Below, one piece after another: positions 23,954-49,050 of a stretch of DNA of 64,000 nucleotides. Made by a program: the position numbers and the translations under genes. This stretch comes from a virus (taxonomy: Duplodnaviria; Caudoviricetes), in the IMG/VR virus record IMGVR_UViG_3300022555_000003, positions 160,001 through 224,000 of that record; one strand, 5' to 3'. The notes below the pieces were generated by a model, which made no database searches, was not told the origin of the DNA, and saw nothing but the letters and a program-made list of their open reading frames with translations. Position 1 is the stretch's first letter, and every line of letters starts with the position of its first letter.

Positions 23954-25398
23954 TGTTTTAGGTTCCTAATCATATTTTTAGCCAATACTTCTGCATCATG
24001 TCTTGTAAAATTTGGATTCTTAAGAGTAGCATCAAGTATTTTATTTTTGATATCGCCAACTAGTCTACCTTTTGCACCCAACGCCATAATTTCATTACCA
24101 TCCAATATACTCTTAGTATTAAGGATTTGATTGATATCCATTTGTTGGATACGCTTTCTGATCATATTGATTTGTTCTGGCAATCCGTGACCTACAGCAT
24201 GAGAATTATTGTCTGCATTGATTACGTCCAACACATCCTCAAGATTGTGACTAACTCTGTAGATAAACTTTCTAAGAGTTGAATCCTTCATAAGTGTTCC
24301 ATCTGGACCAGCGCTCTTCAATCCCATATGATTACTGATAATAATACAAACTTTATCAATAACTTCAGTTGGGTATTTTAGTCTACGCAAAGCAACTTTT
24401 GCAATGTCTGCTCCAATACTTTCGTGACCAATAAATTGCACTTTTCCATCTTTTTCTGTTCTCGTTGAAGATTTTCCACAATCGTGAAATAGTGCCGCTA
24501 GTCTCTTAATAAGGTCTGGTGAACTATTGTCTAGAACTGTTAGAGTGTGTCCAAGTGCATCTTGGTTATGAAACTTGTTTTGCTTTAGCTTATCTAGTGC
24601 TTTAAGCTCAGGCAAAATTACGTCCATAATGCCAGTAATTCTAAATAGTTCAAATGCTTTACCAGGCTTATTAAGAACAAGAATTTTACTGATCTCATCA
24701 TTGATTCGTTCTGCACTGATACTCTTAAGAGAGGGAGCAGCTTTTTTAATTGATTTAATGACATTAAGTGGAAGAGTAAATCCATACTTAATTGCAAATC
24801 GAACAGCACGAAGAATACGAAGAGGATCTTCTGAAAATATTAGTTCTGGCTTTCCGGTTGTATTGAGTACTCCATTTTTAAGATCTTTCAAACCACGTCC
24901 ACTCAAATCAAGTATCTCACCAGTTTGTAGATTTTGAATTAGAGAATTTATTGTGAAATCTCTGCGTAGTACATCATCCTTCAACGTTCCAGCCACTACA
25001 GCTGGCTTACGACTTCCTGGAGTATATTTTTCTGTCCTGGGTGCTACAAACTCGACATCCATTGGTCCCGAATTTGTTTTGATTGCAAGTTTTGCAGTAA
25101 AATATGTTGGGAACAATACAGGATTGCTATCTTGCTTAAAAATACCAAGCTTTTTAGCAATAAATGTGGCTGCATCAAGCCCAGCAGTAGGTCCACCATC
25201 AACAACAATATCGATATCTTTTGAATTTTTACCCAAAAGTGTATCACGCACAAATCCTCCAGCAATAAATAGCCTTCCGTCGAATTCAGATCCTTCGATT
25301 GCATTTTTCAGAAGTTCAATTGTTTCGTCGGTTTGTGATGATTCCATTATCATACTACTATTATACACTCTTTGGTTGATAATTTCAAATATTTTCAT
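23950..25398 (-). CDS. cca: CCA-adding tRNA nucleotidyltransferase with HD domain
   Basis: AGGFVRD, KDIDI, DDVLRRDFTINS, EDPLRILRAVRF, ERINDE, HDCGK; starts MKIFEI. Confidence 0.92.
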   Translation of the reverse strand: MKIFEIINQRVYNSSMIMESSQTDETIELLKNAIEGSEFDGRLFIAGGFVRDTLLGKNSKDIDIVVDGGPTAGLDAATFIAKKLGIFKQDSNPVLFPTYFTAKLAIKTNSGPMDVEFVAPRTEKYTPGSRKPAVVAGTLKDDVLRRDFTINSLIQNLQTGEILDLSGRGLKDLKNGVLNTTGKPELIFSEDPLRILRAVRFAIKYGFTLPLNVIKSIKKAAPSLKSISAERINDEISKILVLNKPGKAFELFRITGIMDVILPELKALDKLKQNKFHNQDALGHTLTVLDNSSPDLIKRLAALFHDCGKSSTRTEKDGKVQFIGHESIGADIAKVALRRLKYPTEVIDKVCIIISNHMGLKSAGPDGTLMKDSTLRKFIYRVSHNLEDVLDVINADNNSHAVGHGLPEQINMIRKRIQQMDINQILNTKSILDGNEIMALGAKGRLVGDIKNKILDATLKNPNFTRHDAEVLAKNMIRNLKQ

Positions 25399-25407
25399 TA
25401 CTTTCCT

Positions 25408-25884
25408 TTATCCAATATACTTTTCTAATTTATTGCCGTCTGCTTGTTTTTTATATCCTAATCGTTCATAAAATGATTTGGCTGTTGAAGTTAACACTAT
25501 TTTCTTAACTCCTTTTATTTTAGCTTCTTTTTCTAACGCATTTATAACTTGTGATCCAGCGCCCCTTTCAATGGATCCAACATTCATAATTTCCGCTTCA
25601 GTTGATTTTCGTGGGATCCACATTGATCCAGCTGCTACAATCTTATTATTTAAAATAACAAATGCTGTCCTAATGTTAGCTCGCTGTGATAAAGGTGCAT
25701 TGATTTGTATTTCTAATACTGTACTAATATGACATAATGCAGCATATTCATGATTTTCTTCGCCGTTTTCTTCCAATTCAGCTATTCGTTCATCAACTTG
25801 TTTAATTGATTGACGTGCAATATTATCAGACAGATTAATGCCAGTTTGTACATTTTCTTTTAATATCATTTCTGTTATTTTCAT
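25408..25884 (-). CDS. GNAT acetyltransferase with Glu-leader
   Basis: ERGAGSQVINALEKEA (motif A), AKSFYERLGY; starts MKITEMILKE. Confidence 0.8.
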   Translation of the reverse strand: MKITEMILKENVQTGINLSDNIARQSIKQVDERIAELEENGEENHEYAALCHISTVLEIQINAPLSQRANIRTAFVILNNKIVAAGSMWIPRKSTEAEIMNVGSIERGAGSQVINALEKEAKIKGVKKIVLTSTAKSFYERLGYKKQADGNKLEKYIG

Positions 25885-32228: not shown

Positions 32229-32723
32229 TTATTTATCCAATTCTCCATATCCTTGTGCTTGCCCTTCATCACTGGTTGTAAAAATACTATTACTTCTTCT
32301 AGCTTCAATTCCAAGTAGTTTCAAATTCTTATCATAAGCAATTGTATTATCAATATCACTATCGACGGTCCGTCTTTTTTCAATACTAGCTGATTCAAAA
32401 ATTACTCCAGATGGTCTTGTGCCACGAAATAATACTTTTTTTATTGTATCAAAAATATTAAGATAGTTACTAGCTTCTTTTTGTATTTTCTTTATTACAT
32501 CTACTTCTTTCTTTATAACTTGTTTAACCTGAGATAATTCTTTCAAATAATGTCCTTTTGCAGTCTGATGAATGTTTTTAACGGCATCGTTTGTTGTTTG
32601 TTTAATGTTATAATCAGAATCTTTAATCCAATAATTCAGTTTTTCCAGATGTGATTCGTCTTCCCACTTGTTTATTAAAACAGTACGATGGCTCTTTGCT
32701 TCCATTAAGTCAATTATTTTCAT
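32229..32723 (-). pseudogene. ART-array copy 1, 3'-truncated (lacks catalytic-Glu segment)
   Basis: LFRG and RSNSIFTTS present; ends GYGELDK* inside the next gene's late promoter. Confidence 0.75.
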
Positions 32724-33568
32724 TTAGTGTATCCTAATTTTCTTCTAATTGTTTGAAATTCAAAAAAGTACTTTTCTAATATAGCAAAATATGCTCCATG
32801 TATTAGTACTTCATTTTCTGATTTTAAGGCGGCTGGAAAATTCTTATTAGTAACTCTAAATTTTTTCTGAAAGCTATCTAAATCTGGTTCTCTATTTAAT
32901 AATTCTCTAGTATATTTAAGTACTGGAGATTCGGGGAATTTCAATGATATCCATTTTAAATTATCTACTATAGTACTTTTTTCTGTAAAACCTAATATTT
33001 CATATAGTTTAAATTTATAGTCAATCAAAGTAGATTTTAATTTCCAAACAAGATTATTATATTCTTTATCAGCCCTTTCAATCTCGCTGTCAATTACATT
33101 TGTTATTTCTTTTGGATAATCTTTTACATAACTACCCATATGATCTAAAATCAAATCATTGTGTATTCTGCTCCAACTAAATACTGCTGTATTTTTTGGA
33201 ATGATGACATATGATATTTGTCCGTAGTCTGAAGAAGAATCCAAACTAGATGTGGTAAAAATACTATTACTTCTAAGAGCTTTAATACCAAGTAACGTCA
33301 TCAAATTATCATATCTTAGAGTATCCGATTTGCTACTATCCATTGGACGTCTATTTTCAATACTTTCACCTTCAAAAATTACTCCAGTTTTTTTAGTTCC
33401 TCTATATAATACTCTATGTGTTGCATCAAATACTTTAAGATATTTACTGCATTCTTTCTGTATTTTAATAGTAATGTCAGTATTTATTTGTGCGCCGTCT
33501 TCCCACTTGTTTATTAAAATTACACGGGTTGAATGTTTCTTTGCTTCCATTAAGTCAGTTATTTTCAT
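32720..33568 (-). CDS. putative R-S-E ADP-ribosyltransferase, copy 2 (ExE)
   Basis: LYRG, RSNSIFTTSS, SENEVLIHG; leader MKITDLMEA. Confidence 0.75.
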   Translation of the reverse strand: MKITDLMEAKKHSTRVILINKWEDGAQINTDITIKIQKECSKYLKVFDATHRVLYRGTKKTGVIFEGESIENRRPMDSSKSDTLRYDNLMTLLGIKALRSNSIFTTSSLDSSSDYGQISYVIIPKNTAVFSWSRIHNDLILDHMGSYVKDYPKEITNVIDSEIERADKEYNNLVWKLKSTLIDYKFKLYEILGFTEKSTIVDNLKWISLKFPESPVLKYTRELLNREPDLDSFQKKFRVTNKNFPAALKSENEVLIHGAYFAILEKYFFEFQTIRRKLGYTK

Positions 33569-34554
33569 TTAAGTAATCCTAACTTAGTTCTGAGTGGTTG
33601 AAGGTGTACGAAGAAGTCCTCTTCAGCTACAGCAAAATATTCTCCGTGTATTAATACTTCATGCTTGGATCTGATTGCTGCTGAAAAATAAGAATCATAA
33701 ACTCCATACTTTTTTTGAAATTCTTTAAGATTATATGTTGGATTTATTAGTTCTTCTGAATATTTAAGTATTGGAGATTTTGGTTTATTTTTAGAGATCC
33801 AACTAACTAACCCTTTGGCATCTTCGATAGTTTCTTGATACAACAAATCTCTCAATGAATTATTATATTCTGTCATTTCTTCAATTTTATTTTCGTCTTT
33901 TAGTTTCGATATAATAGCGTCACTTTTATCAAGCTCTTTTTTAATCACATCTTTTAATTTACTAGAATACCTAGGGCCTAATAATGCTCTTCTATGTGTA
34001 GAATCTAACACCAAATCAGAATATATAAAGCTCCAACTAAACACTGCTGTATTCTTAGGTATAATTACATATACTTTGCTTCCATAATCACTTGCCTGAT
34101 TTGAACTTCCTGTTGTAAATGTACTATTACAACGTAAGGCTTCAATACCAAGTAACTTCAATTTTTCATCATATTCTTTTGACAAAAGATTACTACTGTC
34201 CTTAGGATGACGATTTATTGGACTCGTTGCTTCAAATATAGATCCTCCGTTAGTAGTACCTCTGAATAAAAAATTGTTGATTTGATCATATACTTTAATG
34301 TAATTACTACATTCTTTTTGTATTCTCTTAGCAATAGCAGTCTCTGAATTAATAATTGGTTTTATTTTGGATAACTCTTTCTCACAATCTTTTAGTAGTT
34401 TTTTAAACTTTGTCTTTTCTTTTGGATCTTTTTCTTGTTTAATAAGAGATGTGATATCGACGATATCTTTATTTACATCTAATCCATCTACCCATTTAGT
34501 CAGTAAAGTTTTTCGTTTACTAACAGATTCTAATAGTAAGTCATTTATTTTCAT
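33565..34554 (-). CDS. putative R-S-E ADP-ribosyltransferase, copy 3
   Basis: LFRG, RCNSTFTTGS, SKHEVLIHG; leader MKINDLLLES. Confidence 0.75.
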   Translation of the reverse strand: MKINDLLLESVSKRKTLLTKWVDGLDVNKDIVDITSLIKQEKDPKEKTKFKKLLKDCEKELSKIKPIINSETAIAKRIQKECSNYIKVYDQINNFLFRGTTNGGSIFEATSPINRHPKDSSNLLSKEYDEKLKLLGIEALRCNSTFTTGSSNQASDYGSKVYVIIPKNTAVFSWSFIYSDLVLDSTHRRALLGPRYSSKLKDVIKKELDKSDAIISKLKDENKIEEMTEYNNSLRDLLYQETIEDAKGLVSWISKNKPKSPILKYSEELINPTYNLKEFQKKYGVYDSYFSAAIRSKHEVLIHGEYFAVAEEDFFVHLQPLRTKLGLLK

Positions 34555-35534
34555 AATAATTTTTTAACCATTGGCCAAAATAGATGATTAATGGCAATAT
34601 ATTTTCCGTGTATTAATACTTCGTTACGAGACTGTAATGCCGCTGGCATATCACTATTAGTGATCTGATATTTCTTTTGAAATTTATCTAAATTAATTGT
34701 AATTGTATATTCAATGAGATCATGAAGTATTGTCGAGTTTGGAAAGTTTTTCTCTATAAAATCTAAAGTGTAAAATCGTGTATCAACTTGTTTAAACTTA
34801 ATAATATCTTTTAAAATTAGAATATATCTATACATGACTCTGTGTTTGTCGGGGAGATAGTAATCATCGTCATTTATCAGGTGTTGATATTTTGATAATT
34901 CTAGTCTAGATTTGTTAATTAACTCAATTGGTAAATCATACAAATCATCAAACGAATTACTTGTTAGTACTATATCGTCGGACGTCAATGAGCATGAAAA
35001 GTCTGCTGAATCTTCAGGAATAATTATATATGTATTCCCATATATTTGTACAGCCTGTTTCGAACTACTAGTAAAAATACTATTCAATCGAAGCGCTTTA
35101 ATACCTAATTGTGTTGCACATCCATCAAACAACTTACTCATTATAGCACTACTATCAAGTGGTCTTCTTTCTGACAGAGATTCTGATTCAAATGCAGTTA
35201 AGTTTCCATTGATGCCACGATATAACCATCTTTGTTCTTGTTTAAAAATATTTACATACTTATTGCAACTAGATTTAACTATCTGTTGAACATTATTTAT
35301 AACATCCCTATAGTTAGTCATGTCATTAATTATTTTTTCTTCCTCATCAATGACATTCTCATAATATCCAATACTCTCTGTATCAATGGGTTCACTAGAC
35401 TTAATTAAATCTATTTTATTTCTGAGGCGGTCAATACGCTCTATACAAGATGTATAAACAATAATATCAAAATTACCAGTCAATGAGACTTTCTTAGGAG
35501 CTCCATCTTCATTGATAATCTCTGAGAAACGCAT
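34551..35534 (-). CDS. putative R-S-E ADP-ribosyltransferase, copy 4
   Basis: LYRG, RLNSIFTSSS, SRNEVLIHG; leader MRFSEIINE. Confidence 0.75.
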   Translation of the reverse strand: MRFSEIINEDGAPKKVSLTGNFDIIVYTSCIERIDRLRNKIDLIKSSEPIDTESIGYYENVIDEEEKIINDMTNYRDVINNVQQIVKSSCNKYVNIFKQEQRWLYRGINGNLTAFESESLSERRPLDSSAIMSKLFDGCATQLGIKALRLNSIFTSSSKQAVQIYGNTYIIIPEDSADFSCSLTSDDIVLTSNSFDDLYDLPIELINKSRLELSKYQHLINDDDYYLPDKHRVMYRYILILKDIIKFKQVDTRFYTLDFIEKNFPNSTILHDLIEYTITINLDKFQKKYQITNSDMPAALQSRNEVLIHGKYIAINHLFWPMVKKLL

Positions 35535-35537
35535 TAG

Positions 35538-35984
35538 TTAGGCCCTTGCTTTCTTAGTCATTGACCGCATTTTCCACGCCCATTTTTCGTGAGCAGCAAT
35601 ACGATCCTGTAAAAAGTTTTGTAGACCTAAATGATCACCAGCTTGAGCATAAGTTTCTTCTAATAGCTTAATCACAACATGATTGTTTTCTAATAGCTCT
35701 TCAATCATTAATTCAGCTCTAGGAACTAGTAATTGTTCACTAATTTCAGTTAGTTCAGCAAAACGTGCTAAACTTCCTGGAGCATATATGTCAAGTGCTC
35801 TGATATGTTCAGCAATATCATCACATGATTCAAACACATCCTGATATAATTCACCTAGGAATGCATGATAAGAATGAAAATGGGGACCTTCTAGGTTCCA
35901 ATGGAAGTATTGAGCTTTTAGTTGGAATACATAAGATGTAGCTAATAAACGTTTGATCTTTTCTTCGAGATGTAGGATAGTCAT
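35538..35984 (-). CDS. dps: Dps-family mini-ferritin
   Basis: KAQYFHWNLEGPHFHSYH...DDIAEHIRAL...HEKWAW; GATAAATA 5 nt upstream. Confidence 0.92.
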   Translation of the reverse strand: MTILHLEEKIKRLLATSYVFQLKAQYFHWNLEGPHFHSYHAFLGELYQDVFESCDDIAEHIRALDIYAPGSLARFAELTEISEQLLVPRAELMIEELLENNHVVIKLLEETYAQAGDHLGLQNFLQDRIAAHEKWAWKMRSMTKKARA

Positions 35985-36011
35985 ATAACTATTTATCTAC
36001 ATGTTAAAATA

Positions 36012-36786
36012 TCATTCACCAAATAATTTTATTTTAATATCTGGCCACACACTAATGTGAATACCATAATATTCGCCATGTATTAATATTTCATTGCCTG
36101 ATTTTAATGCACTAACGAAGTTTGTTGAATCAATTTGATATTTTGCTTGAAACTTATTAATATTTGCTGGAACGTCTTTGGCATCATCTAATATAATATC
36201 ATCGTGAGTTTTACTCCAACTAAAATCAGCGGAGTCTTTTGGTATAATTATATATCTTGTTCTAGTTGTATTCTGACCAAAATTTAAATAGGCAGAGATT
36301 TGGCTAGCATCTCCGCTAGTAAAAATACTATTTTTTCGTTGAGCTTTAACACCCAATTTATCTAACTGCCTGTCAAACAAAATAGACATATAATTATCAC
36401 TATCAACAGGAATTCTGTCAATGAGACTCCTGTCTTGATATAATGCTCCACGATTTTTTCTGGCACTATATAAACATTCGTCGGTTTGTTTAAACACACT
36501 TAAATATTTTTTACACTCAGCGTTAATTTGCGGAATAAAATTGTCAAATTGTGCTAAGTAATCAGTAAATTGCTTCATCAACATTGTATATTTTACTGTT
36601 TCTTCATCAATATAATCCTGTGTTGATTTATATTCGGGGTTACTTTTATCAATCTTAATAAGATATATTTTTAATTCTTTTATATTGTGATCAATTTGAA
36701 GAATTTTTTTTATTTAAACTAGCTTGTATTTTGGGAACTAAAATTTGTTGATGTTTAGTTTCAGTTAAAAATTCATGTGATCTCAT
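36012..36786 (-). pseudogene. ART-array copy 5, frameshifted in an A8 run (or sequencing error)
   Basis: MRSHEFLTE start at 36786 goes out of frame at the T8 tract near 36704-36711; removing one base joins it to the 190-aa ORF with LYSAR, RKNSIFTSG, GNEILIHG. Confidence 0.7.
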
Positions 36787-37781
36787 TTTAATAATTTACC
36801 TTTGAGTGCTTCCCAAACTGAACTATGCAAGCCATAAAACTCACCATGTATTAGTATTTCATTTCTGGTACTAAGTGCTTTATCAAAATTAGTTGTATCA
36901 ATTTTAAATATGTCTATAAACTTCTTTATATCAACAGTTGGTTTATATTTAAGAAGTTTTTTGGATATTTTCAGTATTGGCGAATTAGGAAATATTTGTT
37001 TAATACGTCTTAAATTAAAATCCATGTTTGTATAATTTTGCTTGTCAAGATTATATAATATCTTGTGATATTCATTACTGGTCCAGTAATGATCATCATC
37101 GTCATTATTATCAATATCATCTGTTACTTTTCCCAACTCATCGCTTATTATTTTTTTAAATGGACTATCTACATAAGTTGGAATTATTGATGAGTTGCTT
37201 AGTATTAGATCGTCGTTGGATTCACTCCAGCTAAAATCAGCTGTACTTTTAGGTATAATAACATACTTTGTTTGGCCATAGCCACCAGCATGTGATGAGT
37301 CAGACGAAGTAAAAATACTATTTCCTCTGCGTGCTTTAACACCCATTTCTTGTAATATTTTGTCAAATGATATAGTAATTCCTTGGTCGCTGTCTCTTAC
37401 TTGTCTATTTTCAACACTACGTCCAACATATAATCCACCATGCATTCTACGGCCACTAAACAAACACTTATCTGTACGTTTGTAAGCGTCTAGATAAGTT
37501 TTACAGTCGTTACGAATTTGAGGAATGAATGGTGTAAATAATTTTAAATAGTCTTGGCATCTCTTTTTAATTCTTGCATACTTAGCTTCTGCAGCATCTA
37601 ATTCAATTTTAACTTGTTCAGCTGATGAAGCATTAAAATCTTTACTGGTGTTGTTTACAAGATTATTATATCTTTTCTTTAAGTAATAAACAGTATGTCG
37701 GTTTAATGTAACATTATTTATTAACTCAGTATTTATAGGTGTTACTAAAACTTCCATATCTATTACTTCATTGATTTTCAT
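36783..37781 (-). CDS. putative ADP-ribosyltransferase, copy 6 (FSGR variant)
   Basis: LFSGRR, RGNSIFTSSDS, TRNEILIHG; leader MKINEVIDME. Confidence 0.7.
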   Translation of the reverse strand: MKINEVIDMEVLVTPINTELINNVTLNRHTVYYLKKRYNNLVNNTSKDFNASSAEQVKIELDAAEAKYARIKKRCQDYLKLFTPFIPQIRNDCKTYLDAYKRTDKCLFSGRRMHGGLYVGRSVENRQVRDSDQGITISFDKILQEMGVKARRGNSIFTSSDSSHAGGYGQTKYVIIPKSTADFSWSESNDDLILSNSSIIPTYVDSPFKKIISDELGKVTDDIDNNDDDDHYWTSNEYHKILYNLDKQNYTNMDFNLRRIKQIFPNSPILKISKKLLKYKPTVDIKKFIDIFKIDTTNFDKALSTRNEILIHGEFYGLHSSVWEALKGKLLK

Positions 37782-38752
37782 TGGAATAACTTCCCTTTAA
37801 CTATGTCCCATATACTGTTATGTATCCCATAATATTTACCATTTATTAGTATTTCGTGATTTGTGTTTAGTACCGCTTCCATTGAGGTTGTATTAATCTT
37901 GAACTTTTCTTGAAACTTGTTGAGATCAATTTTTGGTTTATATTTAAGTAATTGATCTGCTATACTATTAACTGGAGAGTCAGGATATTTATTTTTGACA
38001 TAAGCTAAATCAGTTTTAATGTTATAAAAATTTTGTCTATATAACCATTCTAAGATTTGTAAGTATTTGTAATGTTGTCCAATATCAGAATCACGTTCAA
38101 TTCTTTCTTTTTCATCTTTAAGAATCTTTTCCATATTATCTGGCAATGGTCTGTAAGTTAATTTCAATGAATAACTACTTAGTACTAGATCATCTCTTGT
38201 TTCGCTCCAACTAAAGTTAATGTCATTGAATGGAATTATTATGTATCTATCAGCGCCATATTCTGCAGCATGACATTCACTTGACGTTGTAAAAATACTA
38301 TTTCCTCTACGTGCTTTAACACCAAGTTTTTTTAATAAACTATCAAATTTGGTTGTAACAGAGGCCATACTGTCTTTTGGTCTTCGTTTTTCTAAGCTTT
38401 CATCCTGATACAATGCTCCATGAAATCTACGTCCACTGTATAATACTTGGCCTGTTCTGTTAAATAATTCTAGATAATGACTACAGTTATTTTGAATTAT
38501 TGGTCCGAATTTTGAAAATTCTTTCATTGAATCAGCAAATCTTTTTTGAGTTTTTATAACATTATCTTTAGCTTTTTGCAACTCTTTTTTAAATTTAGCA
38601 GCTTGTTCTGGAGTTGTACTTTCCAACTTGTTATGTTCAATACTTTTTACTTTGTTAATGCCTACTTGCAATGTAGCTTGTAACTCAAGCTGAACACTAT
38701 GTATTAAAACTTTTTCATTTGCGCTTTCAACAATAAATTCGTGTGACCGCAT
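37778..38752 (-). CDS. putative ADP-ribosyltransferase, copy 7 (YSGR variant)
   Basis: LYSGRR, RGNSIFTTSS, TNHEILING; leader MRSHEFIVES. Confidence 0.7.
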   Translation of the reverse strand: MRSHEFIVESANEKVLIHSVQLELQATLQVGINKVKSIEHNKLESTTPEQAAKFKKELQKAKDNVIKTQKRFADSMKEFSKFGPIIQNNCSHYLELFNRTGQVLYSGRRFHGALYQDESLEKRRPKDSMASVTTKFDSLLKKLGVKARRGNSIFTTSSECHAAEYGADRYIIIPFNDINFSWSETRDDLVLSSYSLKLTYRPLPDNMEKILKDEKERIERDSDIGQHYKYLQILEWLYRQNFYNIKTDLAYVKNKYPDSPVNSIADQLLKYKPKIDLNKFQEKFKINTTSMEAVLNTNHEILINGKYYGIHNSIWDIVKGKLFQ

Positions 38753-39801
38753 TACATATCTCCTTTAAACAAATCAAATAAATCAATTTGAACCGCAATG
38801 TATTTTCCATGTATTAGTACTTCGTGCTTTTTAATTATAGCAGTTTGTAAGTTGGTGTCCATTGGTTTATATTTTTTCTTAAATTTATTCAAATTGACTC
38901 GGCTATATTCAATACTGTTTAATGTAAGTAGTAATGATTCAGGAAAATAATAATTTAGAAATTTTCGACCAGTGAAAGAAATAATTCTGTTTCCAGTAGT
39001 TCGAACATCTAGTAGATATTTATAATAACATTGTAGAATTGATAATTTTTCATTATATTCATTATCGTTTGATTTTGATATTAACTCTTTCTCTTCTTCA
39101 ATTTTAGTCTGTATTTCATCTAATTCATTGTCTAAGGCGGCAATCACTTCGGGTGAAAAAGACATTAGTCCATTAAATGAATCACTATGTAATATTAGAT
39201 CCTTTCCAGCCTCTGACCAGGAATAATCAGCTGTATCTTCAGGAAAAATAACATAAATGTTATTACCATATGATTTAGCTTGGCTTATACTACTTGATGT
39301 AAAAATACTGTTAGAACGCAGAGCTTTAATACCTAATTCTTGTAAACAACTATCATATAATATAGTAGAATCTATATTGCTATCTTTTGGAGGTCGATTA
39401 TTAGGACTGTCGGATTCAAATGCAGGAAATGAATTTGACTGACCACGATATAACATTCCACTATGCTTGAAGATTCCAATATATTCACTACATCTTTTTT
39501 TAATTATTGATATCAATAATTTTATGTTTTCTTTTAAATTTTCTTCTTTGTATTGATTTTTTTGAAGTTCAGCAATTCTATCAGTTAATACTTTATATTC
39601 TTTTTTAATTTTAAAAGATTCGTCAGATGTAATTTCTGGATTAAACCATATTTTTTCATGACATTCTGCTTGTTTCTTTTTTAAATCAATAATTACATAA
39701 GTAACCAATGGATCAACAGAAATGTCTACCAATGGATCAACAGAAATGTCTACCAATGGAGTTTTAACTGGTTTTATGTTCTCTACTTCAAATAGTCTCA
39801 T
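38752..39801 (-). CDS. putative R-S-E ADP-ribosyltransferase, copy 8
   Basis: Likely start MRLFEVE at 39801; LYRG, RSNSIFTSSS, KKHEVLIHG. Confidence 0.75.
   Translation of the reverse strand: MRLFEVENIKPVKTPLVDISVDPLVDISVDPLVTYVIIDLKKKQAECHEKIWFNPEITSDESFKIKKEYKVLTDRIAELQKNQYKEENLKENIKLLISIIKKRCSEYIGIFKHSGMLYRGQSNSFPAFESDSPNNRPPKDSNIDSTILYDSCLQELGIKALRSNSIFTSSSISQAKSYGNNIYVIFPEDTADYSWSEAGKDLILHSDSFNGLMSFSPEVIAALDNELDEIQTKIEEEKELISKSNDNEYNEKLSILQCYYKYLLDVRTTGNRIISFTGRKFLNYYFPESLLLTLNSIEYSRVNLNKFKKKYKPMDTNLQTAIIKKHEVLIHGKYIAVQIDLFDLFKGDM
39704..39760. repeat. 24-bp perfect tandem duplication in ART copy 8 N-terminus
   Basis: ACCAATGGATCAACAGAAATGTCT twice plus a partial copy; encodes PLVDISVDPLVDISVDPLV. 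Confidence 0.9.
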
Positions 39802-39802
39802 A

Positions 39803-40816
39803 TTAGTTTTTCTTTTCTGATATAGTAAGTAACGGTTCAAAATTTGAATTAGGTACAAATTCGTGTTTACGTATAACTGTCTTAGCTAAAAGCTCAAGTT
39901 CATCTTTAAATTTGTTCCATACTAGCACGAATGGAGCATTAACATCAGTTTTTAAATCTTTTAATACTGCTTGAAAGCCTGGATCTTTCTTTTTCAATTT
40001 TGGTGCATATTTTCGATAAGTTTCAATGAATAATCTGGCAAGTTCATTGATTGTTATTGGTTTCTTATTACGTAAATCATTTACTCTATCTAAGAAGTGT
40101 GTTGAAAAATGAACATCCATTCCAGCTAGCTCCCAAAATTGATTTAAATACTTCTCCAGAGAATGCAATTCATCATTAGTAATTTCTTCCGTTATTTTCT
40201 TTTTGGTACCTGACGGGGCAACTGCCATAGCGTCCTTTAAGGTTTTGAAATAACTCATCCCATTAACTTTTAACTTTGATATTTGAACAGCTCTTTTTGG
40301 ATCACCAGCTGCTGCTGAAATATAAAATGCTTTTTTATCATCTTCTGCTGCTGCTTTTCTCAATGCTGAAGCACTTCCAAGTCTGGGACTTTGTACGTGA
40401 GTAATTGATTTAAATGTATACTTACGTCCTAACTTGTCTGGAACTCCATTATAATCTTTAAGAAGTTTACCACTCCACCCATTCCAATCTTCAATATCAG
40501 TTACATATATTAAATCAGTTACTTCAGGATGATGTTGATTAATATAAAAAGCTAATGTAATAACTAATACTTCAGGAATGATGTGTCCTTTAAGGGTTGG
40601 ATCAAATGCTTCCATCCAAGCTTTTTTAACTTCGTAAGTAAGTGGATTATCTTTATTATGAGTAGTAGGACTAGTACCAACAAACCATAAATTATTGTCA
40701 GCTGAATGTTTAACAACTTCAAATAATTTAACATGTCCCATATGTACTCCGTTAAATCGACCAAAGCACATAGCGGCTGTTGTATTACTTGCTTCAAATA
40801 ATTGTTTGAGGTTCAT
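39803..40816 (-). CDS. HIGH-superfamily nucleotidyltransferase (cytidylyltransferase-like) fused to a second domain
   Basis: CFGRFNGVHMGH, NPLTYEVK, SASALR; C-terminal domain after KITEE with FSTHFLDRVND...KTVIRK. Confidence 0.75.
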   Translation of the reverse strand: MNLKQLFEASNTTAAMCFGRFNGVHMGHVKLFEVVKHSADNNLWFVGTSPTTHNKDNPLTYEVKKAWMEAFDPTLKGHIIPEVLVITLAFYINQHHPEVTDLIYVTDIEDWNGWSGKLLKDYNGVPDKLGRKYTFKSITHVQSPRLGSASALRKAAAEDDKKAFYISAAAGDPKRAVQISKLKVNGMSYFKTLKDAMAVAPSGTKKKITEEITNDELHSLEKYLNQFWELAGMDVHFSTHFLDRVNDLRNKKPITINELARLFIETYRKYAPKLKKKDPGFQAVLKDLKTDVNAPFVLVWNKFKDELELLAKTVIRKHEFVPNSNFEPLLTISEKKN

Positions 40817-41929
40817 TTAATGTTTTCCTAAGTTTGCTGCTGAGAATTTAAATCTATCAACTAACTTTACTGGGCCTGTATTGGTATGTACAATGAATCC
40901 TTCTTGACCAGTTTCATCACCTATTCCAGCATGTAAATCAGTAGTTGATTTATCAAGTTCATTTATTATCTTAAATTTTGCAACTGTAAGTAAACTAAAC
41001 ACAGTCATTACAGCACTAAATGCACTTTGATTTTTTTTAATATGTTCTAATATTCTAGGAGTTGCTGGTCCAGATTGAGTTTCTAACCATTTAATAAACT
41101 GTTGATCTAAATTAATTAATGATTTACTATATATAACATGTTGATTAACGAATGTTTTCAATAATGTCAAAAATGATTTAATCTTTGCTTCAGCTAAATC
41201 AGACTGATTAAATAATTGATCAATTGATGGACCAAACTTAGCAACTAATTGTGTAGCTTTTTTAAGTTCATCAGGCTCAGTAATAGTTACATTAGGAGCT
41301 AATTGGTCTGACATTATTAATAAGCCATTTACTTGATTTCTTACAACACTTTGTAAATCAGTATCAGTAACGTGATGTCCTGAAGTTGCTCCAGCATCTA
41401 ACTTACTATGCACTATAATTCCAACTTTGCTACGTCCTATTAACTTACCGAGTTCAGTATCAACGTTAACTGAATAAGTAACTGTATTTGGAGTGAAGAC
41501 AAACTTATCGCCTTGTTTTGGAGGTTGAGCTGTATACATTAAGTCTCCAAAAAGATATCCCGAAAAGCTTGTCGGAATACTCTTTTCAAAAATTGGCCAC
41601 AGTGAAGAATATAAAGCAAGTAAATGTTGATTGGTGCCACCTTTTCTAGCTGATAATATTTGTTCAAGTTCTTGTATACTATGTGGAGGAGTACTGATCA
41701 TATACTTATCACCCATAGCAAAACCAACTTTATCTCGTCCCCAGAATATAGCAGGCTTTCCGTCTGGCTTTAAACTTACTGTTTGTGGTTGTTTAATAGC
41801 TTGTCGTAATGCATTGATAGAGTCTGTTATCGCTGCTGATCCAATGAATGCAGCGTCTTCAACATGTTCAATTCGAGCTTTTTTAAGATTATATGTCTCT
41901 TCTTCTGTAATAAATTCTGATGATCGCAT
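40817..41929 (-). CDS. polynucleotide-ligase-like nucleotidyltransferase with Glu-leader
   Basis: Motif I KPDG, motif III-like GDLMY, motif IV EGFIV, motif V VKLV; starts MRSSEFITEE; GATAAATA at 41935-41942. Confidence 0.65.
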   Translation of the reverse strand: MRSSEFITEEETYNLKKARIEHVEDAAFIGSAAITDSINALRQAIKQPQTVSLKPDGKPAIFWGRDKVGFAMGDKYMISTPPHSIQELEQILSARKGGTNQHLLALYSSLWPIFEKSIPTSFSGYLFGDLMYTAQPPKQGDKFVFTPNTVTYSVNVDTELGKLIGRSKVGIIVHSKLDAGATSGHHVTDTDLQSVVRNQVNGLLIMSDQLAPNVTITEPDELKKATQLVAKFGPSIDQLFNQSDLAEAKIKSFLTLLKTFVNQHVIYSKSLINLDQQFIKWLETQSGPATPRILEHIKKNQSAFSAVMTVFSLLTVAKFKIINELDKSTTDLHAGIGDETGQEGFIVHTNTGPVKLVDRFKFSAANLGKH

Positions 41930-41955
41930 ATCAGTATTTATCTGAATTAATAATA

Positions 41956-42687
41956 TTATATTAATCGTTCAGCAAGCATATCTTCGTATATTTCTTTTCT
42001 AATAGCAATATATGTTCCGTGTACTAGTATTTCATGGCCAGATTTTAATGCAGCATCCAGATCAGTCTGGTCAAGTTTAAATACTTGTTGAAATGCTTTC
42101 AGATCCAAAATATTTAAATTTGAACTAGGTTGTAATACTATATCCCGATGTGTTTGAGACCAACTAAAATCATCAGAATTAAACGGAAAGATAACATATA
42201 CTCTACCATATGAGATAGCTTGGCTTACACTAGTTGTAGTAAAAATACTATTTGATCTCAACGCTTTAATGCCTAGTTTGGTTGCAAATTCATCATATTC
42301 TTCTTGAATTACCATGTAACTGTCTTTTGGTTCTCTATCAAAAGGTGAATAAGCTTCGAATGCTGCTGGCTTCTTACTTCTAATTCCACGATATAATACT
42401 CTATCATTCTTTTTAAATGCATCATAAAATTTACTACATTCTGATTTAATTCTATTAGATATTTGTTCGTAAGTTTTTATTATGTCAGTATTTGAATTAA
42501 TCTTTTCTAATTCATCATTGGCGCGTGCAAGCTTCTCTTGAAATAATTTTTTTCGTGATTCACTAGTAGTCTGATTTATAATTCTAACAAAAAATTGTAT
42601 GTTAAGTTCGATATTTTCTTTAGCAATTGGATCGTAATCTGCTAGTAAAGTAACTACATTTGATTTTGATATTTCGTTTAGTCTCAT
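41956..42687 (-). CDS. putative R-S-E ADP-ribosyltransferase, copy 9 (short form)
   Basis: LYRG, RSNSIFTTTS, SGHEILVHG; leader MRLNEIS. Confidence 0.75.
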   Translation of the reverse strand: MRLNEISKSNVVTLLADYDPIAKENIELNIQFFVRIINQTTSESRKKLFQEKLARANDELEKINSNTDIIKTYEQISNRIKSECSKFYDAFKKNDRVLYRGIRSKKPAAFEAYSPFDREPKDSYMVIQEEYDEFATKLGIKALRSNSIFTTTSVSQAISYGRVYVIFPFNSDDFSWSQTHRDIVLQPSSNLNILDLKAFQQVFKLDQTDLDAALKSGHEILVHGTYIAIRKEIYEDMLAERLI

Positions 42688-43415
42688 AATAGTTTCTCAA
42701 TGATCATATCTTCATATAAATCATGCCTAACTGCAATATACTTACCATGTATTAGTACTTCATGTTCAGAAAATAATGCCTCAGGTAAATTAGTCTGATC
42801 AAGTTTATATGTCTGTTGAAACTCTTGTACGTCTTTAAAATGTAATGGCTTCTCAGCGAATAATACAAGATCCTTTTTTGCATGAGACCAGCTAAAATCA
42901 GCTGAACTCTTAGGAAATACGACGTATAGATCGCCATAAATTCTAGCTTGATCTTCGTCTGACGATGTGAAAATACTATTTGATCTTTGTGCTATAATAC
43001 CAAGTTGCTCAGCAAATCTATCAAATTTTAATGTATTAACTAATCCGCTGTCCTTAGGTCGTCTGTCAGTTGGACTATTCGATTCGAATGCTGCTGGTTT
43101 GTTATGTCTGATGCCTCTATATAATACAGCATTACTTCGTTTGAATATACTATAAAATTTACTACATTCATTTTTAATCTTATCAGCTAATTCTTTTAAT
43201 ATATCATTTGACTTATTATATTCTTCAATCTTTCTTAATTGTTCTTTGGCGTGGTCTAACTCAACCTGAAATATTGCTTTACGTTCAGGAGTAACATAAT
43301 CTCTATTTAATTGATCAGTATAATACTGAATGTCTAAATTTATGCTGTTAAGTTTAGTAGCGTTATACTTATCAATTAATGTCGTTATGTTAGTAGATAT
43401 TTCATTCAATCTCAT
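42684..43415 (-). CDS. putative R-S-E ADP-ribosyltransferase, copy 10 (short form, ExE)
   Basis: LYRG, RSNSIFTSSD, SEHEVLIHG; leader MRLNEIS. Confidence 0.75.
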   Translation of the reverse strand: MRLNEISTNITTLIDKYNATKLNSINLDIQYYTDQLNRDYVTPERKAIFQVELDHAKEQLRKIEEYNKSNDILKELADKIKNECSKFYSIFKRSNAVLYRGIRHNKPAAFESNSPTDRRPKDSGLVNTLKFDRFAEQLGIIAQRSNSIFTSSDEDQARIYGDLYVVFPKSSADFSWSHAKKDLVLFAEKPLHFKDVQEFQQTYKLDQTNLPEALFSEHEVLIHGKYIAVRHDLYEDMIIEKLL

Positions 43416-44140
43416 AATAGTTTCTCTTTTATCATATCTTCATATACTTGATATTTAATAGCAATATATCGTCCATGTATTAATACTTCATGTTCTGATT
43501 TTAATGCAGCATCCAGATCTGTTTTCTTTAATTTGTATATCTCTTGGAATGATTTTAAGTCCTTAAATCCAGCTTTATGTTCAAGATATAATATAATTTC
43601 TCGTCGAGATTCTGACCAGCTAAAATCAGCTGTATCTTTTGGGTATATGACAAATAGAATGCCATAATATCTAGCGTGACATTCACTCGAAATAGTGAAA
43701 ATACTATTTGATCTAAGTGCTTCAATTCCGAGTTCTTGAGCAAACTTATCAAATAATATTGTATTATTAACATCACTGTCCTTAGGTTCTCTATTTACTG
43801 GGCTCATTGATTCAAATGCTGGCGGATGTTTATATTTGTATCCTCTAAACAATACTTTATCACATTTCTTAAAGGCATTATAAAAGTCTCTACATTCAAC
43901 TTTAATTTTAGTAGCTAATTTTTCCAATGAACCTTCCGGAAGTGATTCCAGATATGTTAATTCTTCTAGTGCATCTTCTAAATATTGTTGAGTTATTTTT
44001 TTATGCTCTTCTGTTTGTGGCTGCCGCATAAGTTTTTTATAATATGATATTTGCGAATTAATTGAATTTCTCCTAATAGGATCAAAATTCGCCGGTAGTA
44101 ACAGTATTTTGTTTGAATCAATCATTTCATATAGACGCAT
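43412..44140 (-). CDS. putative R-S-E ADP-ribosyltransferase, copy 11 (short form, ExE)
   Basis: LFRG, RSNSIFTISS, SEHEVLIHG; leader MRLYEMI; GATAAATA at 44146-44153. Confidence 0.75.
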   Translation of the reverse strand: MRLYEMIDSNKILLLPANFDPIRRNSINSQISYYKKLMRQPQTEEHKKITQQYLEDALEELTYLESLPEGSLEKLATKIKVECRDFYNAFKKCDKVLFRGYKYKHPPAFESMSPVNREPKDSDVNNTILFDKFAQELGIEALRSNSIFTISSECHARYYGILFVIYPKDTADFSWSESRREIILYLEHKAGFKDLKSFQEIYKLKKTDLDAALKSEHEVLIHGRYIAIKYQVYEDMIKEKLL

Positions 44141-44158
44141 AGTAATATTTATCTAAGT

Positions 44159-44890
44159 TTATAGTAATTTTTTACTTACCATTTCGTTGTATATGTCGTC
44201 TATAATAGCAATATATCTACCATGAATTAATATTTCGTGACCTGATAATAAAGCTTTATCTAAACTAAGTTGATCAAGCATAAATTTTTGTTGAAATAAT
44301 TGGATTGATGTGCAACTATCTAACATGTAAGGAACTAATACTATATCAGAATATTTCATTGACCACGAAAAATCAGCTGTATCTTTTGGAAAGATATTAT
44401 ATAAATAATATCCATACTCTTTAGCTTGAGATTTTTGAGTAGTAGCGAAGATACTGTTTGACCTGAGTGCTCTAATTCCAAGCTGTTCAGCAAATGTATC
44501 AAATTTTATTGTGGCTATTTCATTACTATCCTTTGGCCGACGGCCTTCTATACTAGTTGATACAAATACTGGTGGTCTCTCATTTCTAATTCCTCTAAAT
44601 AATACCTTGTTTACTTTCTTACAAGCATTATAAAATTTACCACATTCATTTTTAACTTTATCGGCTATTTTTTTAATCTTTTCATCTATTTCTTTGGCAT
44701 CAATATCATTTAGAATATCTAGATTGTAGTCTATAGATTGTTGTAATGACTTTCTATCTTCTGGATCAGTTGAATCATTTTGTAATTTAATCAGATTAGC
44801 AATATTCTTCTCAGCACTCTCTTTTTCATCTAATCCTATTTCAGATAGTAACGAAATTATATTTTCATCAGACATTTCATATAGACGCAT
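44159..44890 (-). CDS. putative R-S-E ADP-ribosyltransferase, copy 12 (short form)
   Basis: LFRG, RSNSIFATT, SGHEILIHG; leader MRLYEMSDE; TATAAATA at 44896-44903. Confidence 0.75.
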   Translation of the reverse strand: MRLYEMSDENIISLLSEIGLDEKESAEKNIANLIKLQNDSTDPEDRKSLQQSIDYNLDILNDIDAKEIDEKIKKIADKVKNECGKFYNACKKVNKVLFRGIRNERPPVFVSTSIEGRRPKDSNEIATIKFDTFAEQLGIRALRSNSIFATTQKSQAKEYGYYLYNIFPKDTADFSWSMKYSDIVLVPYMLDSCTSIQLFQQKFMLDQLSLDKALLSGHEILIHGRYIAIIDDIYNEMVSKKLL

Positions 44891-44898
44891 AGTAATAT

Positions 44899-45662
44899 TT
44901 ATATAAGCCTATTATAATACCTGATCTAACAGCAATATATGTGCCTTTAATCCAAATTTCGTGTCCAGATAATAATGCTTCTTTTAAATTAGTATCTGAA
45001 TGTAATCCTAAAACCTTAACCATATTATTAATATTAAAATTAGTACGTAGTTTAAACTCTCCAAATTGCTTTTTAATTGGATGATTCAGGTAATCGACTC
45101 ATGTATATTTCTAGAAGATTACGTTGTTCAAGCACATTATTAATAATAGACAAATACATTCTATTAATAGTTCCATGGTAATTATCTTCAACTATTGAAG
45201 GATTACTTGTTGGATACTTATCTATATAATCTTTTAAAGCTTTAGTGAATTGACTAGTATAAGAGTATGCTCCATATTTAATTACTGAATCAAAATCAAA
45301 AACTAAGTCATCATCATTTTCACACCAAGTATAATGAAAACCATTTTTTGGATATATTTGAAATACTTCACCAAAATACTTTGCTAATTTATGTGAAGTA
45401 GTTGCATATATAGAATTTAGACGCCTAGCTTCAACACCAATACTATCAAGACCCCAATCTATTACTCTATATATTTCTGCATTAGATGTCTTTGGAATAC
45501 GATCAGTACTACTACTATCTATATAATAGTTATTCTCATCTCTGGAATGACCACGTGTTCCATGTAGTAATGGATGTTCAGGAACTTCTTTCAATACCTT
45601 AAGATAATCAGAACACTCAGTAGCTATTTTTTCTTCTAATGTGATATTTCAAATAAGCGCAT
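44899..45662 (-). pseudogene. ART-array copy 13, at least two frameshifts
   Basis: MRLFEI start at 45662 is out of frame with LEEKIATECSDY; a second shift near 45076-45100 separates the core (LLHG, RLNSIYATTS) from LLSGHEIWIKG. Confidence 0.7.
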
Positions 45663-46770: not shown

Positions 46771-49050
46771 TTAATATTCAGTAACAAGTTCTTCAACTTG
46801 AATTTTACTGATATTGGATTGGACAGTGATCTTTAACTCTCCGTCCCAATCCAATAGTAACTTTGACTCATCAGCGACATTATCAAATAAGATCTTCTTG
46901 CTCAATGGAAGTTTGATTAACTTACTAACTTTGCGTGCTAATGGTCTCGCACCCATTTTATCATCAACACCAGTTTCAATAATGTAATCAATTAACTTTT
47001 CACTAGCAACAACCTGGAACTTCTTTGCTGATAGTAAATTATTGATATCGTTGATCAAGCTAACAACAATCTTACGATAACTCAAATTATCAAGCTTATT
47101 GAATGTGCAAATTGCACTTAGTCTATTTCTAAACTCTGGCTTGAAAAAGTCTTTAATTGCACTCTTATTGTTTTTCTTAGAACTTTGATCAAACCCAATT
47201 AAATTTTGTTCCATCTCTACAGATCCAAGATTGCTTGTTAAAACAATAATACTTTCTCTGCAATTTGCTTGCTTACCAACTCCATTGATATAACCTTCAT
47301 CCATCATTTGTAGTAGGATTAATGTAACATCAGGATGAGCCTTTTCAATCTCATCAAATAAAATAATGCTATTTGGATGAATTTCAATTTCATTAACAAG
47401 CTGGCCGCCACCCATTGTGCTATCATCAAAACCTACATACCCAGGAGGTGCTCCAATTAGTTTTGATACTGAATGCTTTTCTTGATATTCACTACAATCA
47501 ACTCTGATCAAGTGCATATTCAATTGTTTGCTCAACTCTTTACAAATCAATGTCTTGCCAACACCAGTTGGTCCAAGTAGCAAGAAGCTGCCAATTGGCT
47601 TATTAGGATCTTTCAACCCAGCCTTGCTGATAAGTAATTCATCAGTGATGATATCAACTGCTTCATCTTGACCATATACTACTTTCTTTACTTCAAAGCT
47701 TAGATCTTTGATTTTTTCAGTTTGAACTTCATCTAGCTGTTCAAGAGGAATCTTAGTTGCTTTACTAATTTCTAGCTGGATATCAGACTTATTAACTATC
47801 CAATCTGTTGCATCTAAAATTTTAAATTTTGCACAAGCACTATCAATTAGATCAATTGCCTTATCAGGTAACTTTAACTCTTTCTGATAGCGAATACTCA
47901 AATCAACTGCTTCATCAATGGCTTCGTCTGTAATAAATCCACCATGAAATGTTTCAAAGTAACTCTTAATTCCACGTAAGATTTGTTTTGCTTTGTTTGG
48001 AGTTGGCTCAGTTAACATTAACTTACGGAACCTTCGCATCAAAGCTTTATCTTTTTCAAATGACTTTTTGTACTCTTCCCAAGTTGTACTTGCAATAACT
48101 TTAATTCTGCCCTTTGAGATAGCAGGTTTGAGCATATTTGCTAAATCTGGACCACCAGAAGATCCTGATCCTGCACCAGACATTTGATGGGCTTCATCAA
48201 TGAATAAAATGCATTTTCCGGTTACCGAAAGAGCATCAATGATCTCTACAATCTTTTCTTCAAATTCGCCTCTGTACTTGGTACCAGCTAACAAGGTACC
48301 AATATCAAGATTCCAAACTGTCCAATCTTTTAAGTAATTTGGTACAAATCCTTTAGCAATATTTAATGCAAGACCTTCAATCAGACATGTTTTACCAATA
48401 CCACTATCACCAATCAATAGTACATTGGACTTATTTTTCTTTGCTAAAATTTGAGTGATATCAGTGAGCTCTTCTTCGCGACCAATAACAGGATCAATTT
48501 TACCATCGTTTGCAAGTGCGTTCAAATTGATACAATGCTTTTCTAGAAGTTCAAGAGCTTGATTGGTGTCCATCTTTCCTTTTTCAGCAGTTACTTTGTG
48601 TTCTTGATAATTATCTTCGTAAAATTTGATAAATTTTTCAGAATCTTCATTGGTAGAACCTAAATGCTTCTTCAGTATATATGCTGCATAGCTGGTTGTT
48701 TCTTGCGTAATGCTAACATAGATATCAATCAATCTAATATGATCACGACCTTGAAATACAACCAAATTAGCAGAACGTTCAATCACTCTTGATAACGTTG
48801 CTGTTTTAACTGGATTTGTTTGAGTCTGAGTATTCTGAGTAATAAGTTTTTGATCAGATACATACTTGTTGATTTCTGAATGCATCTGATTAGTATCAAC
48901 ACCATACTTAGATAATATATCTTTGAAATTCTTGTAGCATGTCAATGAATACAATAAATGTTCTAATGTCAAATATTGGTGATTCAAAGACTTGGCATAT
49001 TCAACAGTCTTCTGAAGTACTAAACTAAGTTCTGGATTTTCTCTTAACAA
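46771..49050 (-). CDS. clpA: ClpA-like Hsp100 AAA+ ATPase with IGF loop
   Basis: Clp N-domain (LEHLL), DPVIGREEE, GDSGIGKT, FIDEAH, GPTGVGKT, LFDEIEKAHP, NLIGF, FKPEFRNRL, GARPL. Confidence 0.92.
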   Translation of the reverse strand: MLRENPELSLVLQKTVEYAKSLNHQYLTLEHLLYSLTCYKNFKDILSKYGVDTNQMHSEINKYVSDQKLITQNTQTQTNPVKTATLSRVIERSANLVVFQGRDHIRLIDIYVSITQETTSYAAYILKKHLGSTNEDSEKFIKFYEDNYQEHKVTAEKGKMDTNQALELLEKHCINLNALANDGKIDPVIGREEELTDITQILAKKNKSNVLLIGDSGIGKTCLIEGLALNIAKGFVPNYLKDWTVWNLDIGTLLAGTKYRGEFEEKIVEIIDALSVTGKCILFIDEAHQMSGAGSGSSGGPDLANMLKPAISKGRIKVIASTTWEEYKKSFEKDKALMRRFRKLMLTEPTPNKAKQILRGIKSYFETFHGGFITDEAIDEAVDLSIRYQKELKLPDKAIDLIDSACAKFKILDATDWIVNKSDIQLEISKATKIPLEQLDEVQTEKIKDLSFEVKKVVYGQDEAVDIITDELLISKAGLKDPNKPIGSFLLLGPTGVGKTLICKELSKQLNMHLIRVDCSEYQEKHSVSKLIGAPPGYVGFDDSTMGGGQLVNEIEIHPNSIILFDEIEKAHPDVTLILLQMMDEGYINGVGKQANCRESIIVLTSNLGSVEMEQNLIGFDQSSKKNNKSAIKDFFKPEFRNRLSAICTFNKLDNLSYRKIVVSLINDINNLLSAKKFQVVASEKLIDYIIETGVDDKMGARPLARKVSKLIKLPLSKKILFDNVADESKLLLDWDGELKITVQSNISKIQVEELVTEY

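Follow-up and report, generated by a model that had tools for sequence, protein, structure and literature searches.

A tandem array of predicted ADP-ribosyltransferase-fold proteins with a putative head-packaging leader in a virus genome

Results and discussion

The 64,000-nucleotide stretch of viral DNA analysed here (the window) corresponds to bases 160001–224000 of the 242,080-bp virus record IMGVR_UViG_3300022555_000003, which has inverted terminal repeats and an estimated completeness of 74%; the G+C content of the window is about 31%. At positions 32229–45662, it carries a tandem array of 13 paralogous genes, w1 to w13, all on the minus strand, as revealed by open reading frame (ORF) listing and alignment. 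We hold with moderate confidence that these genes encode packaged, probably injected effectors which use nicotinamide adenine dinucleotide (NAD) and have an ADP-ribosyltransferase (ART) fold, and that the array arose by lineage-specific expansion within a very large family of jumbo-phage virion proteins, which has so far gone unannotated. The fold is taken from structure prediction; enzymatic activity, loading into the head, cleavage and injection are what we infer from it and from better known phages. On this reading, an unrecognised ART-like family would be used as multi-paralog virion cargo.

Predicted fold and active-site pattern

An earlier note on the window, made from the sequence alone, had described the 13 copies as putative cholera-toxin-like ARTs with an R-S-E triad and had proposed a comparison with ART structures by Foldseek. 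Models were computed with AlphaFold2 without templates from an alignment of 82 family sequences, both for full-length w9 (pLDDT, predicted local distance difference test, 92.2) and for its core, residues 66–243 (pLDDT 95.8). Helical-hairpin matches dominated the fold search with the full-length model, the Foldseek rows being of low probability, and the core was therefore modelled alone. The predicted core shows the split beta-sheet of the ART fold. Structure searches with it return almost only members of the ART superfamily; the individual scores are modest and no other fold recurs. The ESM Atlas search gave DUF3841 (template modelling score, TM, 0.52), ART-PolyVal, Arr-ms and ART/ADPrib_exo_Tox, and Foldseek against the PDB agrees with an ART at low probability. 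Against AFDB Swiss-Prot, nothing significant was found. The nearest structures are BC2332-like proteins and Arr, along with KptA and DarT, and not the C3, iota or cholera toxins. BC2332-like proteins, which probably correspond to Pfam DUF3841, belong to the ADP-ribosylation superfamily (SCOP d.166.1.6; PMC3000352). Protein language-model features pointed to DUF2441 and DUF3841 as a weak lead, and DUF2441 is a member of the Pfam ART clan (PMC7955679). The models thus support an ART-superfamily fold for the family.

The triads of ARTs are supplied by strands 1, 2 and 5 (PMC7955679). In the model, an R-[ST]-E-like layout matches this order: strand 1 bears [R/H/S]100-G101, strand 2 ends with [TS]151 and is followed by a helix, and strand 5 opens with E219. 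Position 100 is occupied by Arg in 70 of the 82 sequences, by Ser in nine and by His in two, and G101 is kept in 78. The residues which ARTs use on strand 1 are Arg and His. At the end of strand 2, the motif is [TVAC]-[TS]-[SGT], with Ser or Thr at the middle position in 77 of the 82 sequences. E219 is also kept in 77 and is followed by [VI]-L-I-x-G-x-Y, a hairpin. R144, N146 and S147, which immediately precede strand 2, are strictly invariant, and in the loop before them R118 and S123 come close to this. Working like an ART is the best functional reading of this predicted pattern.

The seven motifs listed in the earlier note (I..EC..Y, [LV][YF]RG, R.P.DS, LG..A.R.NSIF, YG..Y.I.P, FSWS..D..L and [HN]E[IV]L[IV]HG.Y.A) are present in the copies, except that the Arg of YRG is Ser in w5–w7 and His in w13; His is also found in two copies outside the window. 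Of the cholera-toxin-like R-S-E assignment, the predicted fold and the strand order of R, [ST] and E are supported. Membership of that clade is not: there is no Pfam ART match, no ExE motif and the Arg is replaceable.

N-terminal leader and packaging

Eleven of the 13 window copies start with M-[KR]-[LIFS]-x-[ED]-[IFLVM], and another [IL]-x-E often comes after it (e.g. MRSHEFIVES, MKINEVIDME). In the form M[KR][ILFSW].[ED][ILFVM], this leader opens 23 of the 271 ORFs of at least 100 residues in the whole genome versus 0.34% of the internal Met positions, and 12 of these 23 ORFs are family members. The leader is of the type found on the T4 internal proteins IPI, IPII and IPIII, which is about 10 residues long: the N-terminus of IPII and IPIII, read from the T4 record, is MKTYQEFIAE, and MRSHEFIVES of w7 comes closest to it in the array. 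In T4, the capsid-targeting sequence (CTS) loads diverse internal proteins into the prohead (PMC3012670). The leader also resembles the sites cut by the T4 prohead protease, and T4 Alt has a comparable N-terminal [IL]xE site (Alt starts with MELITELFDE).

The same type of leader occurs on family members of unrelated contigs and of Agrobacterium phage Atu_ph07 (MRWEQLTE), where the family array could be mapped to gp53–gp63 by coordinates and predicted masses. Electrospray tandem mass spectrometry of Atu_ph07 virions lists all of gp53–gp65, with 3–31 unique peptides each and 12–46% coverage, and gp204 of this phage is a T4 gp21 homologue (PMC6102473, including Tables S3 and S5). Packaging, implied by the injected ARTs of the earlier note, is thus supported for the family by the T4 CTS-like leader and, indirectly through homology but decisively, by the Atu_ph07 proteins in purified virions. 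T4 Alt is annotated as both capsid-borne and injected, and by analogy the proteins of the family may be injected as well.

Leaders of this type are also found on non-family proteins, several of them of unassigned function (window 23174–25884 and 40817–41929; genome 18470–24954 and 128322–130491). Among them are a CCA-adding tRNA nucleotidyltransferase (window 23950–25398) and two 370-residue DUF6267 proteins with a KxDG ligase-like motif. This sequence pattern suggests a wider set of packaged enzymes. A further ORF of 147 residues at genome 228105–228548 begins with the leader MKAFEIS, followed by YYHGS, and could be a small ART candidate of the His type (Arr-like or PolyVal-like).

Composition of the array

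The ORFs, the alignment, matches to PHROG 11975 (‘unknown function’; E-values of 8e-16 to 2e-32 for the 10 copies scanned) and a genome-wide profile search all bear out the 13 tandem paralogs of the earlier note. They are not 13 equally intact genes, however: 10 copies are intact (w2–w4, w6–w8 and w9–w12), while w1 is truncated, w5 is reduced to the core and w13 is a pseudogene. Three non-family genes interrupt the array, and overlaps of 4 nt (ATGA) join many of the neighbouring genes. The features are as follows (window coordinates, all on the minus strand).

32229–32723, minus: w1, truncated, 164 residues; leader, helices and strands 1–2 kept, stop just past the YG motif; PHROG 11975 E-value 8e-16
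32720–33568, minus: w2, intact long form, 282 residues, short N-terminal region; triad positions R / TTS / E
33565–34554, minus: w3, intact long form, 329 residues; 103-residue insert between strands 4 and 5
34551–35534, minus: w4, intact long form, 327 residues
35538–35984, minus: Dps/ferritin-like gene, non-family; Pfam PF00210, E-value 3.5e-18; GATAAATA-N5-ATG upstream
36012–36584, minus: w5, core-only short form, 190 residues; Ser replaces Arg on strand 1
36783–37781, minus: w6, intact long form, 332 residues; Ser on strand 1 (LFSGR)
37778–38752, minus: w7, intact long form, 324 residues; leader MRSHEFIVES; Ser on strand 1
38752–39801, minus: w8, intact long form, 349 residues from the ATG at 39801
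39803–40816, minus: HIGH-motif (cytidylyltransferase-like) nucleotidyltransferase, non-family
40817–41929, minus: DUF6267 protein, non-family; leader MRSSEFITEE, KPDG motif; GATAAATA-N5-ATG upstream
41956–42687, minus: w9, intact short form, 243 residues; the protein modelled, at full length and as core (residues 66–243)
42684–43415, minus: w10, intact short form, 243 residues; E-H-E at the catalytic-type Glu
43412–44140, minus: w11, intact short form, 242 residues; GATAAATA-N5-ATG upstream
44159–44890, minus: w12, intact short form, 243 residues; TATAAATA-N5-ATG upstream
44919–45662, minus: w13, pseudogene in at least three pieces or frames

The truncated w1 has neither strands 3–6 nor the half with the catalytic-type Glu. 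In w5, the leader and the N-terminal helices have decayed, and stop codons fill the frame upstream. The start of w8 is most likely the ATG at 39801 (leader MRLFEV) rather than the TTG at 39858. The leader of w13 (MRLFEISH, 45636–45662) is followed by a stop codon; its core ORF, with His on strand 1, lies in a different frame at 45073–45594, and a third, C-terminal GHEIWIKGTYIAV piece is found within 44919–45128, a stretch that contains stop codons.

A profile made from the array copies recovered, on the whole genome, all 13 copies, a C-terminal fragment and four copies outside the window at genome 123703–127845, which brings the total to 17 copies plus fragments. The first of the outside copies (genome 123703–125181, 492 residues) is a fusion of an N-terminal P-loop kinase (GAPGSGKSS) to the family domain, which is ART-like and has His on strand 1.

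Candidate expression signal

The motif GATAAATA-N5-ATG is located directly upstream of 28 ORFs genome-wide and occurs 35 times, compared with 13.5 in shuffled sequence. Behind it lie, among others, w11, the genes for DUF6267 and Dps, and the gene that opens the second array, and w12 carries the TATAAATA form; the sites in the window are at 44896–44903, ~44146, ~41935 and ~35990. The exact T4 late promoter TATAAATA is not enriched (11 found versus 16.5 expected), the recurrent form being GATAAATA-N5-ATG. The GATAAATA motif resembles this promoter; if it is itself a promoter, the 5-nt spacing would suggest leaderless mRNAs.

Divergence of the copies

Pairwise identity among the intact copies spans 28–54% in the core; compared with the 16% of the N-terminal helical hairpin, the core stands at 45–49%. 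Between strand 4 (FSWS..D) and the Glu motif, the copies have a segment of either 20–21 residues (w5, w9–w12) or 96–110 residues (w2–w4, w6–w8). A maximum-likelihood tree separates the window copies into four subclades, each of which includes proteins of other contigs as well (P0026; P0027, P0029 and P0035; P0032 and P0034; P0036); the subfamilies are therefore older than this phage lineage. Later local duplication seems to have given rise to w9–w12 and w5–w7. A tandem micro-duplication in w8 (DISVDPLV, twice) is single in the near-identical database protein P0006, and w2 and w3 have truncated counterparts in the database, P0012 and P0031; at the sequence level, such variants show ongoing variation in the population.

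Distribution of the family

In a search of metagenomes, the family matched 4,613 cluster representatives (clustering at 50% identity) with E ≤ 1e-3 and 2,292 with E ≤ 1e-10; the Atlas clusters of the family are 96–100% viral. Members from cultured phages (Agrobacterium phage Atu_ph07, Ralstonia phage RsoM2USA, Salicola phage SCTP-2 and Achromobacter phage Motura) are always annotated as hypothetical or uncharacterised. Atu_ph07 has 13 family-profile matches (E-values down to 1e-41), 11 of them in a tandem block at 41.8–50.2 kb. Large arrays are thus recurrent. The earlier note knew of no described phage ART array of this size, and indeed none was found described, but Atu_ph07 has one of similar extent that is annotated as hypothetical proteins. 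A search for related loci with the 13 window paralogs gave only three, on viral contigs with one to four family matches each, and megablast of the array against GenBank phages gave no match. Sequence searches of the family in Pfam, NCBIfam and the PDB revealed nothing relevant. No description of the family or its arrays was found in a literature search, the supplements of the jumbo-phage survey PMC7824862 lying outside that search.

Fusions of the family domain in other phages involve AAA_33/zeta-toxin-like kinases, a pair of GNAT domains (P0135) and, once, sigma-70 region 1.1 (P0126), and the domain is repeated five times in the metagenomic protein P0016 (2,645 residues). The combination of kinase and ART-like domain seen in the outside copy of this genome recurs in P0043, P0046 and Atu_ph07 gp53 (‘Zeta toxin domain’), which is present in virions. 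Such partner domains are compatible with an effector that modifies the host and may act on RNA polymerase.

With at least 4,600 sequence clusters and no annotation in Pfam, NCBIfam or PHROGs, the family appears to join an ART fold to a head-packaging leader. In two or more distant jumbo phages, it has been amplified to 13–17 copies per genome. If active, the proteins would open up an extensive new repertoire of effectors that depend on NAD+ and of enzymes that probably act in counter-defence, and a block of ‘hypothetical’ virion proteins of Atu_ph07 would gain a function.

Comparison with known systems

In function, T4 Alt and the CTS-tagged internal proteins, taken together, are the closest known analogue. 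Injected ARTs of the Alt type are a classic means of host takeover at DNA entry. The family shares with T4 Alt, ModA and ModB the ART fold (predicted in the family), and with Alt also packaging, as judged from the proteomics of homologues. Likenesses in sequence are confined to short strings: LYRG and DSFTTS in ModB (the latter [DN]S.FTTS in the family), and E-V-[LM]-I..G in Alt and ModA, compared with E-[VI]-[LM]-I..G in the family, counted from the Glu. Differences are the absence of ExE, a strand-1 Arg that can be replaced by Ser or His, additional invariant R, N and S residues, and 17 copies as opposed to the one ART which T4 packages. In a comparison of the family alignment with an alignment of ModA, ModB and Alt, hhalign gave a probability of 1.5%, at a sensitivity that is low because the T4 profile was built from only three sequences. 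The family profile had no match in the T4 genome at E ≤ 1, versus 13 places in Atu_ph07. The Alt/Mod-like kinship claimed in the earlier note thus found no support, and membership of the Alt/Mod or cholera-toxin-like groups is not established.

Like the family, the T4 internal proteins are diverse, with only the leader in common (PMC3012670). Unlike theirs, the cargo proposed here is one enzyme-like fold which has been duplicated many times over, and a gp21-type protease was not found in the partial record. ART domains which are delivered with phage DNA have been described in polyvalent proteins (PMC7824862), and ART-PolyVal is among the Atlas structural neighbours of the core. The proteins of the array, however, are small and stand-alone, not domains of giant polyvalent proteins, and do not match PF18760. 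BC2332-like proteins (PDB 2aua) and Arr resemble the core as compact, minimal ART domains, but share 6–11% sequence identity with it and no profile match. BC2332 has no known function, whereas Arr is a bacterial antibiotic-resistance enzyme (rifampin ADP-ribosyltransferase). The strand-1 residue of Arr is His, compared with Arg in most copies of the array.

The nearest counterpart of the whole array is that of Atu_ph07, with the same family, an 11-gene tandem, a comparable leader, a zeta-toxin-like kinase fusion and presence in virions; identity to the copies of the window is only ~25–33%. The genome report of Atu_ph07 does not mention paralogy and does not assign a fold or function to gp53–gp63 (PMC6102473). 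Multiple paralogous head or ejection proteins are known from another jumbo phage, SPN3US, whose head ‘Paralog family B’ has 20 members of unknown function (PMC5694885). Identity with that family was considered and rejected, as the family profile finds nothing in SPN3US.

Proposed mechanism and alternative explanations

Every full-length copy consists of a leader of ~5–10 residues with the pattern M-[RK]-[LIF]-x-E-[IFLVM], a hypervariable helical hairpin, a conserved core of ~170 residues with the predicted ART fold and, just ahead of the catalytic-type Glu, a variable stretch 20–110 residues long. At the position of this pre-Glu segment, known ARTs have their target-recognition loop, the ADP-ribosylating toxin turn-turn (ARTT) loop. 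We propose that the genes would be transcribed as operons, several of them behind the T4-late-like GATAAATA motif; the proteins would be loaded into the prohead via the leader, would enter the cell together with the DNA and would use NAD+ to modify host components. As the paralogs vary mainly in the hairpin and the pre-Glu insert, they probably have different targets. For the proteins of this phage, it is loading, cleavage, injection, NAD+ use, transferase activity and diversity of targets that we infer.

A bolder version of this proposal seems possible to us, but is rather to be doubted. The family would then be a new clade of the ART superfamily, widespread in jumbo phages with T4-like heads, and its active site would have a layout of its own: strand 1 would supply [R/H/S]-G, strand 5 a single Glu, and an invariant R-x-N-S would precede strand 2. 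No larger set of enzymes packed into a phage head and injected would be known, and the hairpin and pre-Glu insert of each paralog would direct it to a host target of its own, be it RNA polymerase, the machinery of translation or a particular defence system.

Several observations weigh against packaged and injected ART-fold effectors. Profile searches provide no sequence-level link to a known ART family: Pfam scans found none in 10 copies at E ≤ 1 or in the 82 family members at E ≤ 0.1, PF18760, PF12952 and PF03496 had no match in the genome at E ≤ 10, and a PDB profile search with the family returned no ART. The mapping of the triad is based on strand order in the model, not on superposition. 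Arg100 has been replaced by Ser in at least three separate lineages. ExE/QxE is not conserved, the residue before the x-E219 pair being Gly in 41, Arg in 11, Glu in 10 and Lys in nine of the 82 sequences; in the window, E-x-E occurs only in w2, w10 and w11. The invariant R144, N146 and S147 and the near-invariant R118 and S123 are not canonical ART motifs. Presence in virions refers to homologues, and to packaging rather than injection. Searches with PF03420 and T4 gp21 gave no match in the 242-kb record, which is ~74% complete, nor were homologues of T4 gp20 and gp23 detected there, and the genes adjoining the array are those of DNA metabolism, not head genes.

Other explanations have to be weighed. 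The proteins might be NAD+-using ART-fold enzymes whose substrates are not host proteins but nucleic acids (as with DarT and Tpt1/KptA), small molecules (as with Arr) or NAD+ and signals derived from it; they would then serve in DNA or RNA modification or in blunting NAD-based defences. The closest structures (BC2332-like, Arr, KptA and DarT rather than the protein-targeting C3, iota and cholera toxins) speak for this, as do the single conserved Glu in place of ExE/QxE, the additional Arg residues R118 and R144, which could bind phosphates, the fusions, of which this genome has one at 123703–125181, to P-loop kinases that resemble polynucleotide kinases, and the occurrence of the leader on a KxDG ligase-like protein and on a CCA-adding enzyme. 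However, the 17 paralogs have diverged and carry variable modules of the recognition type, which suits many macromolecular targets better than a single nucleic-acid or small-molecule substrate, and RNA polymerase is suggested by the one fusion that contains sigma-70 region 1.1. We consider this explanation unlikely, though it deserves the most weight among the alternatives. Somewhat less likely again is a degenerate ART scaffold without catalytic function in internal head proteins, which would be packaged and injected to act as binders or decoys, much like the T4 anti-restriction protein IPI*, or would help to condense DNA as part of the core; the conserved residues would then serve folding or ligand binding only. 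T4 internal proteins are indeed diverse and share only the CTS (PMC3012670), SPN3US has its 20-member head paralog family of unknown function (PMC5694885), the canonical strand-1 Arg is dispensable in several lineages and profile methods find no known ART motif. Yet R118, D122, S123, R144, N146, S147, D182 and E219 are invariant or nearly so, and as these polar residues persist across 82 sequences with a mean column identity of 21%, they are typical of an active site; the Glu is positioned exactly as in ARTs, and the SPN3US family is a different one, the profile finding nothing in that phage.

It is quite improbable, in our judgement, that the copies are ordinary cytoplasmic phage enzymes which are not packaged here and whose common N-terminus is a translational or other signal instead of a CTS. 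Genes for a T4-type prohead protease, portal and capsid were not found in the record, and many genes start 5 nt downstream of the promoter-like motif, so that leaderless mRNAs, if it is a promoter, could constrain the first codons at the RNA level. However, the leader is conserved as amino acids across distant phages with different codons and residues (e.g. MRWEQLTE in Atu_ph07), the Atu_ph07 homologues are present in virions and, as the record is only ~74% complete, the head genes may simply be missing. The packaged, NAD-using effectors proposed above are the explanation we favour.

Neighbouring genes

The N-terminal 50 residues of the HIGH-motif nucleotidyltransferase within the array (39803–40816) are weakly similar to nicotinamide mononucleotide (NMN) adenylyltransferase (25 bits versus a curated cut-off of 127), a similarity from which a role in NAD+ supply cannot be claimed. 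Conserved synteny with the ligase-like and nucleotidyltransferase genes of Atu_ph07 was considered and rejected, as there is no similarity. Next to the array, at window 46771–49050, a gene for a double AAA+ chaperone of the ClpB/Hsp100 type is located. The family B DNA polymerase is encoded by two adjacent ORFs (550 and 403 residues; window 19473–22362), and the same split has been reported for Atu_ph07 (gp276/gp277) and SPN3US.

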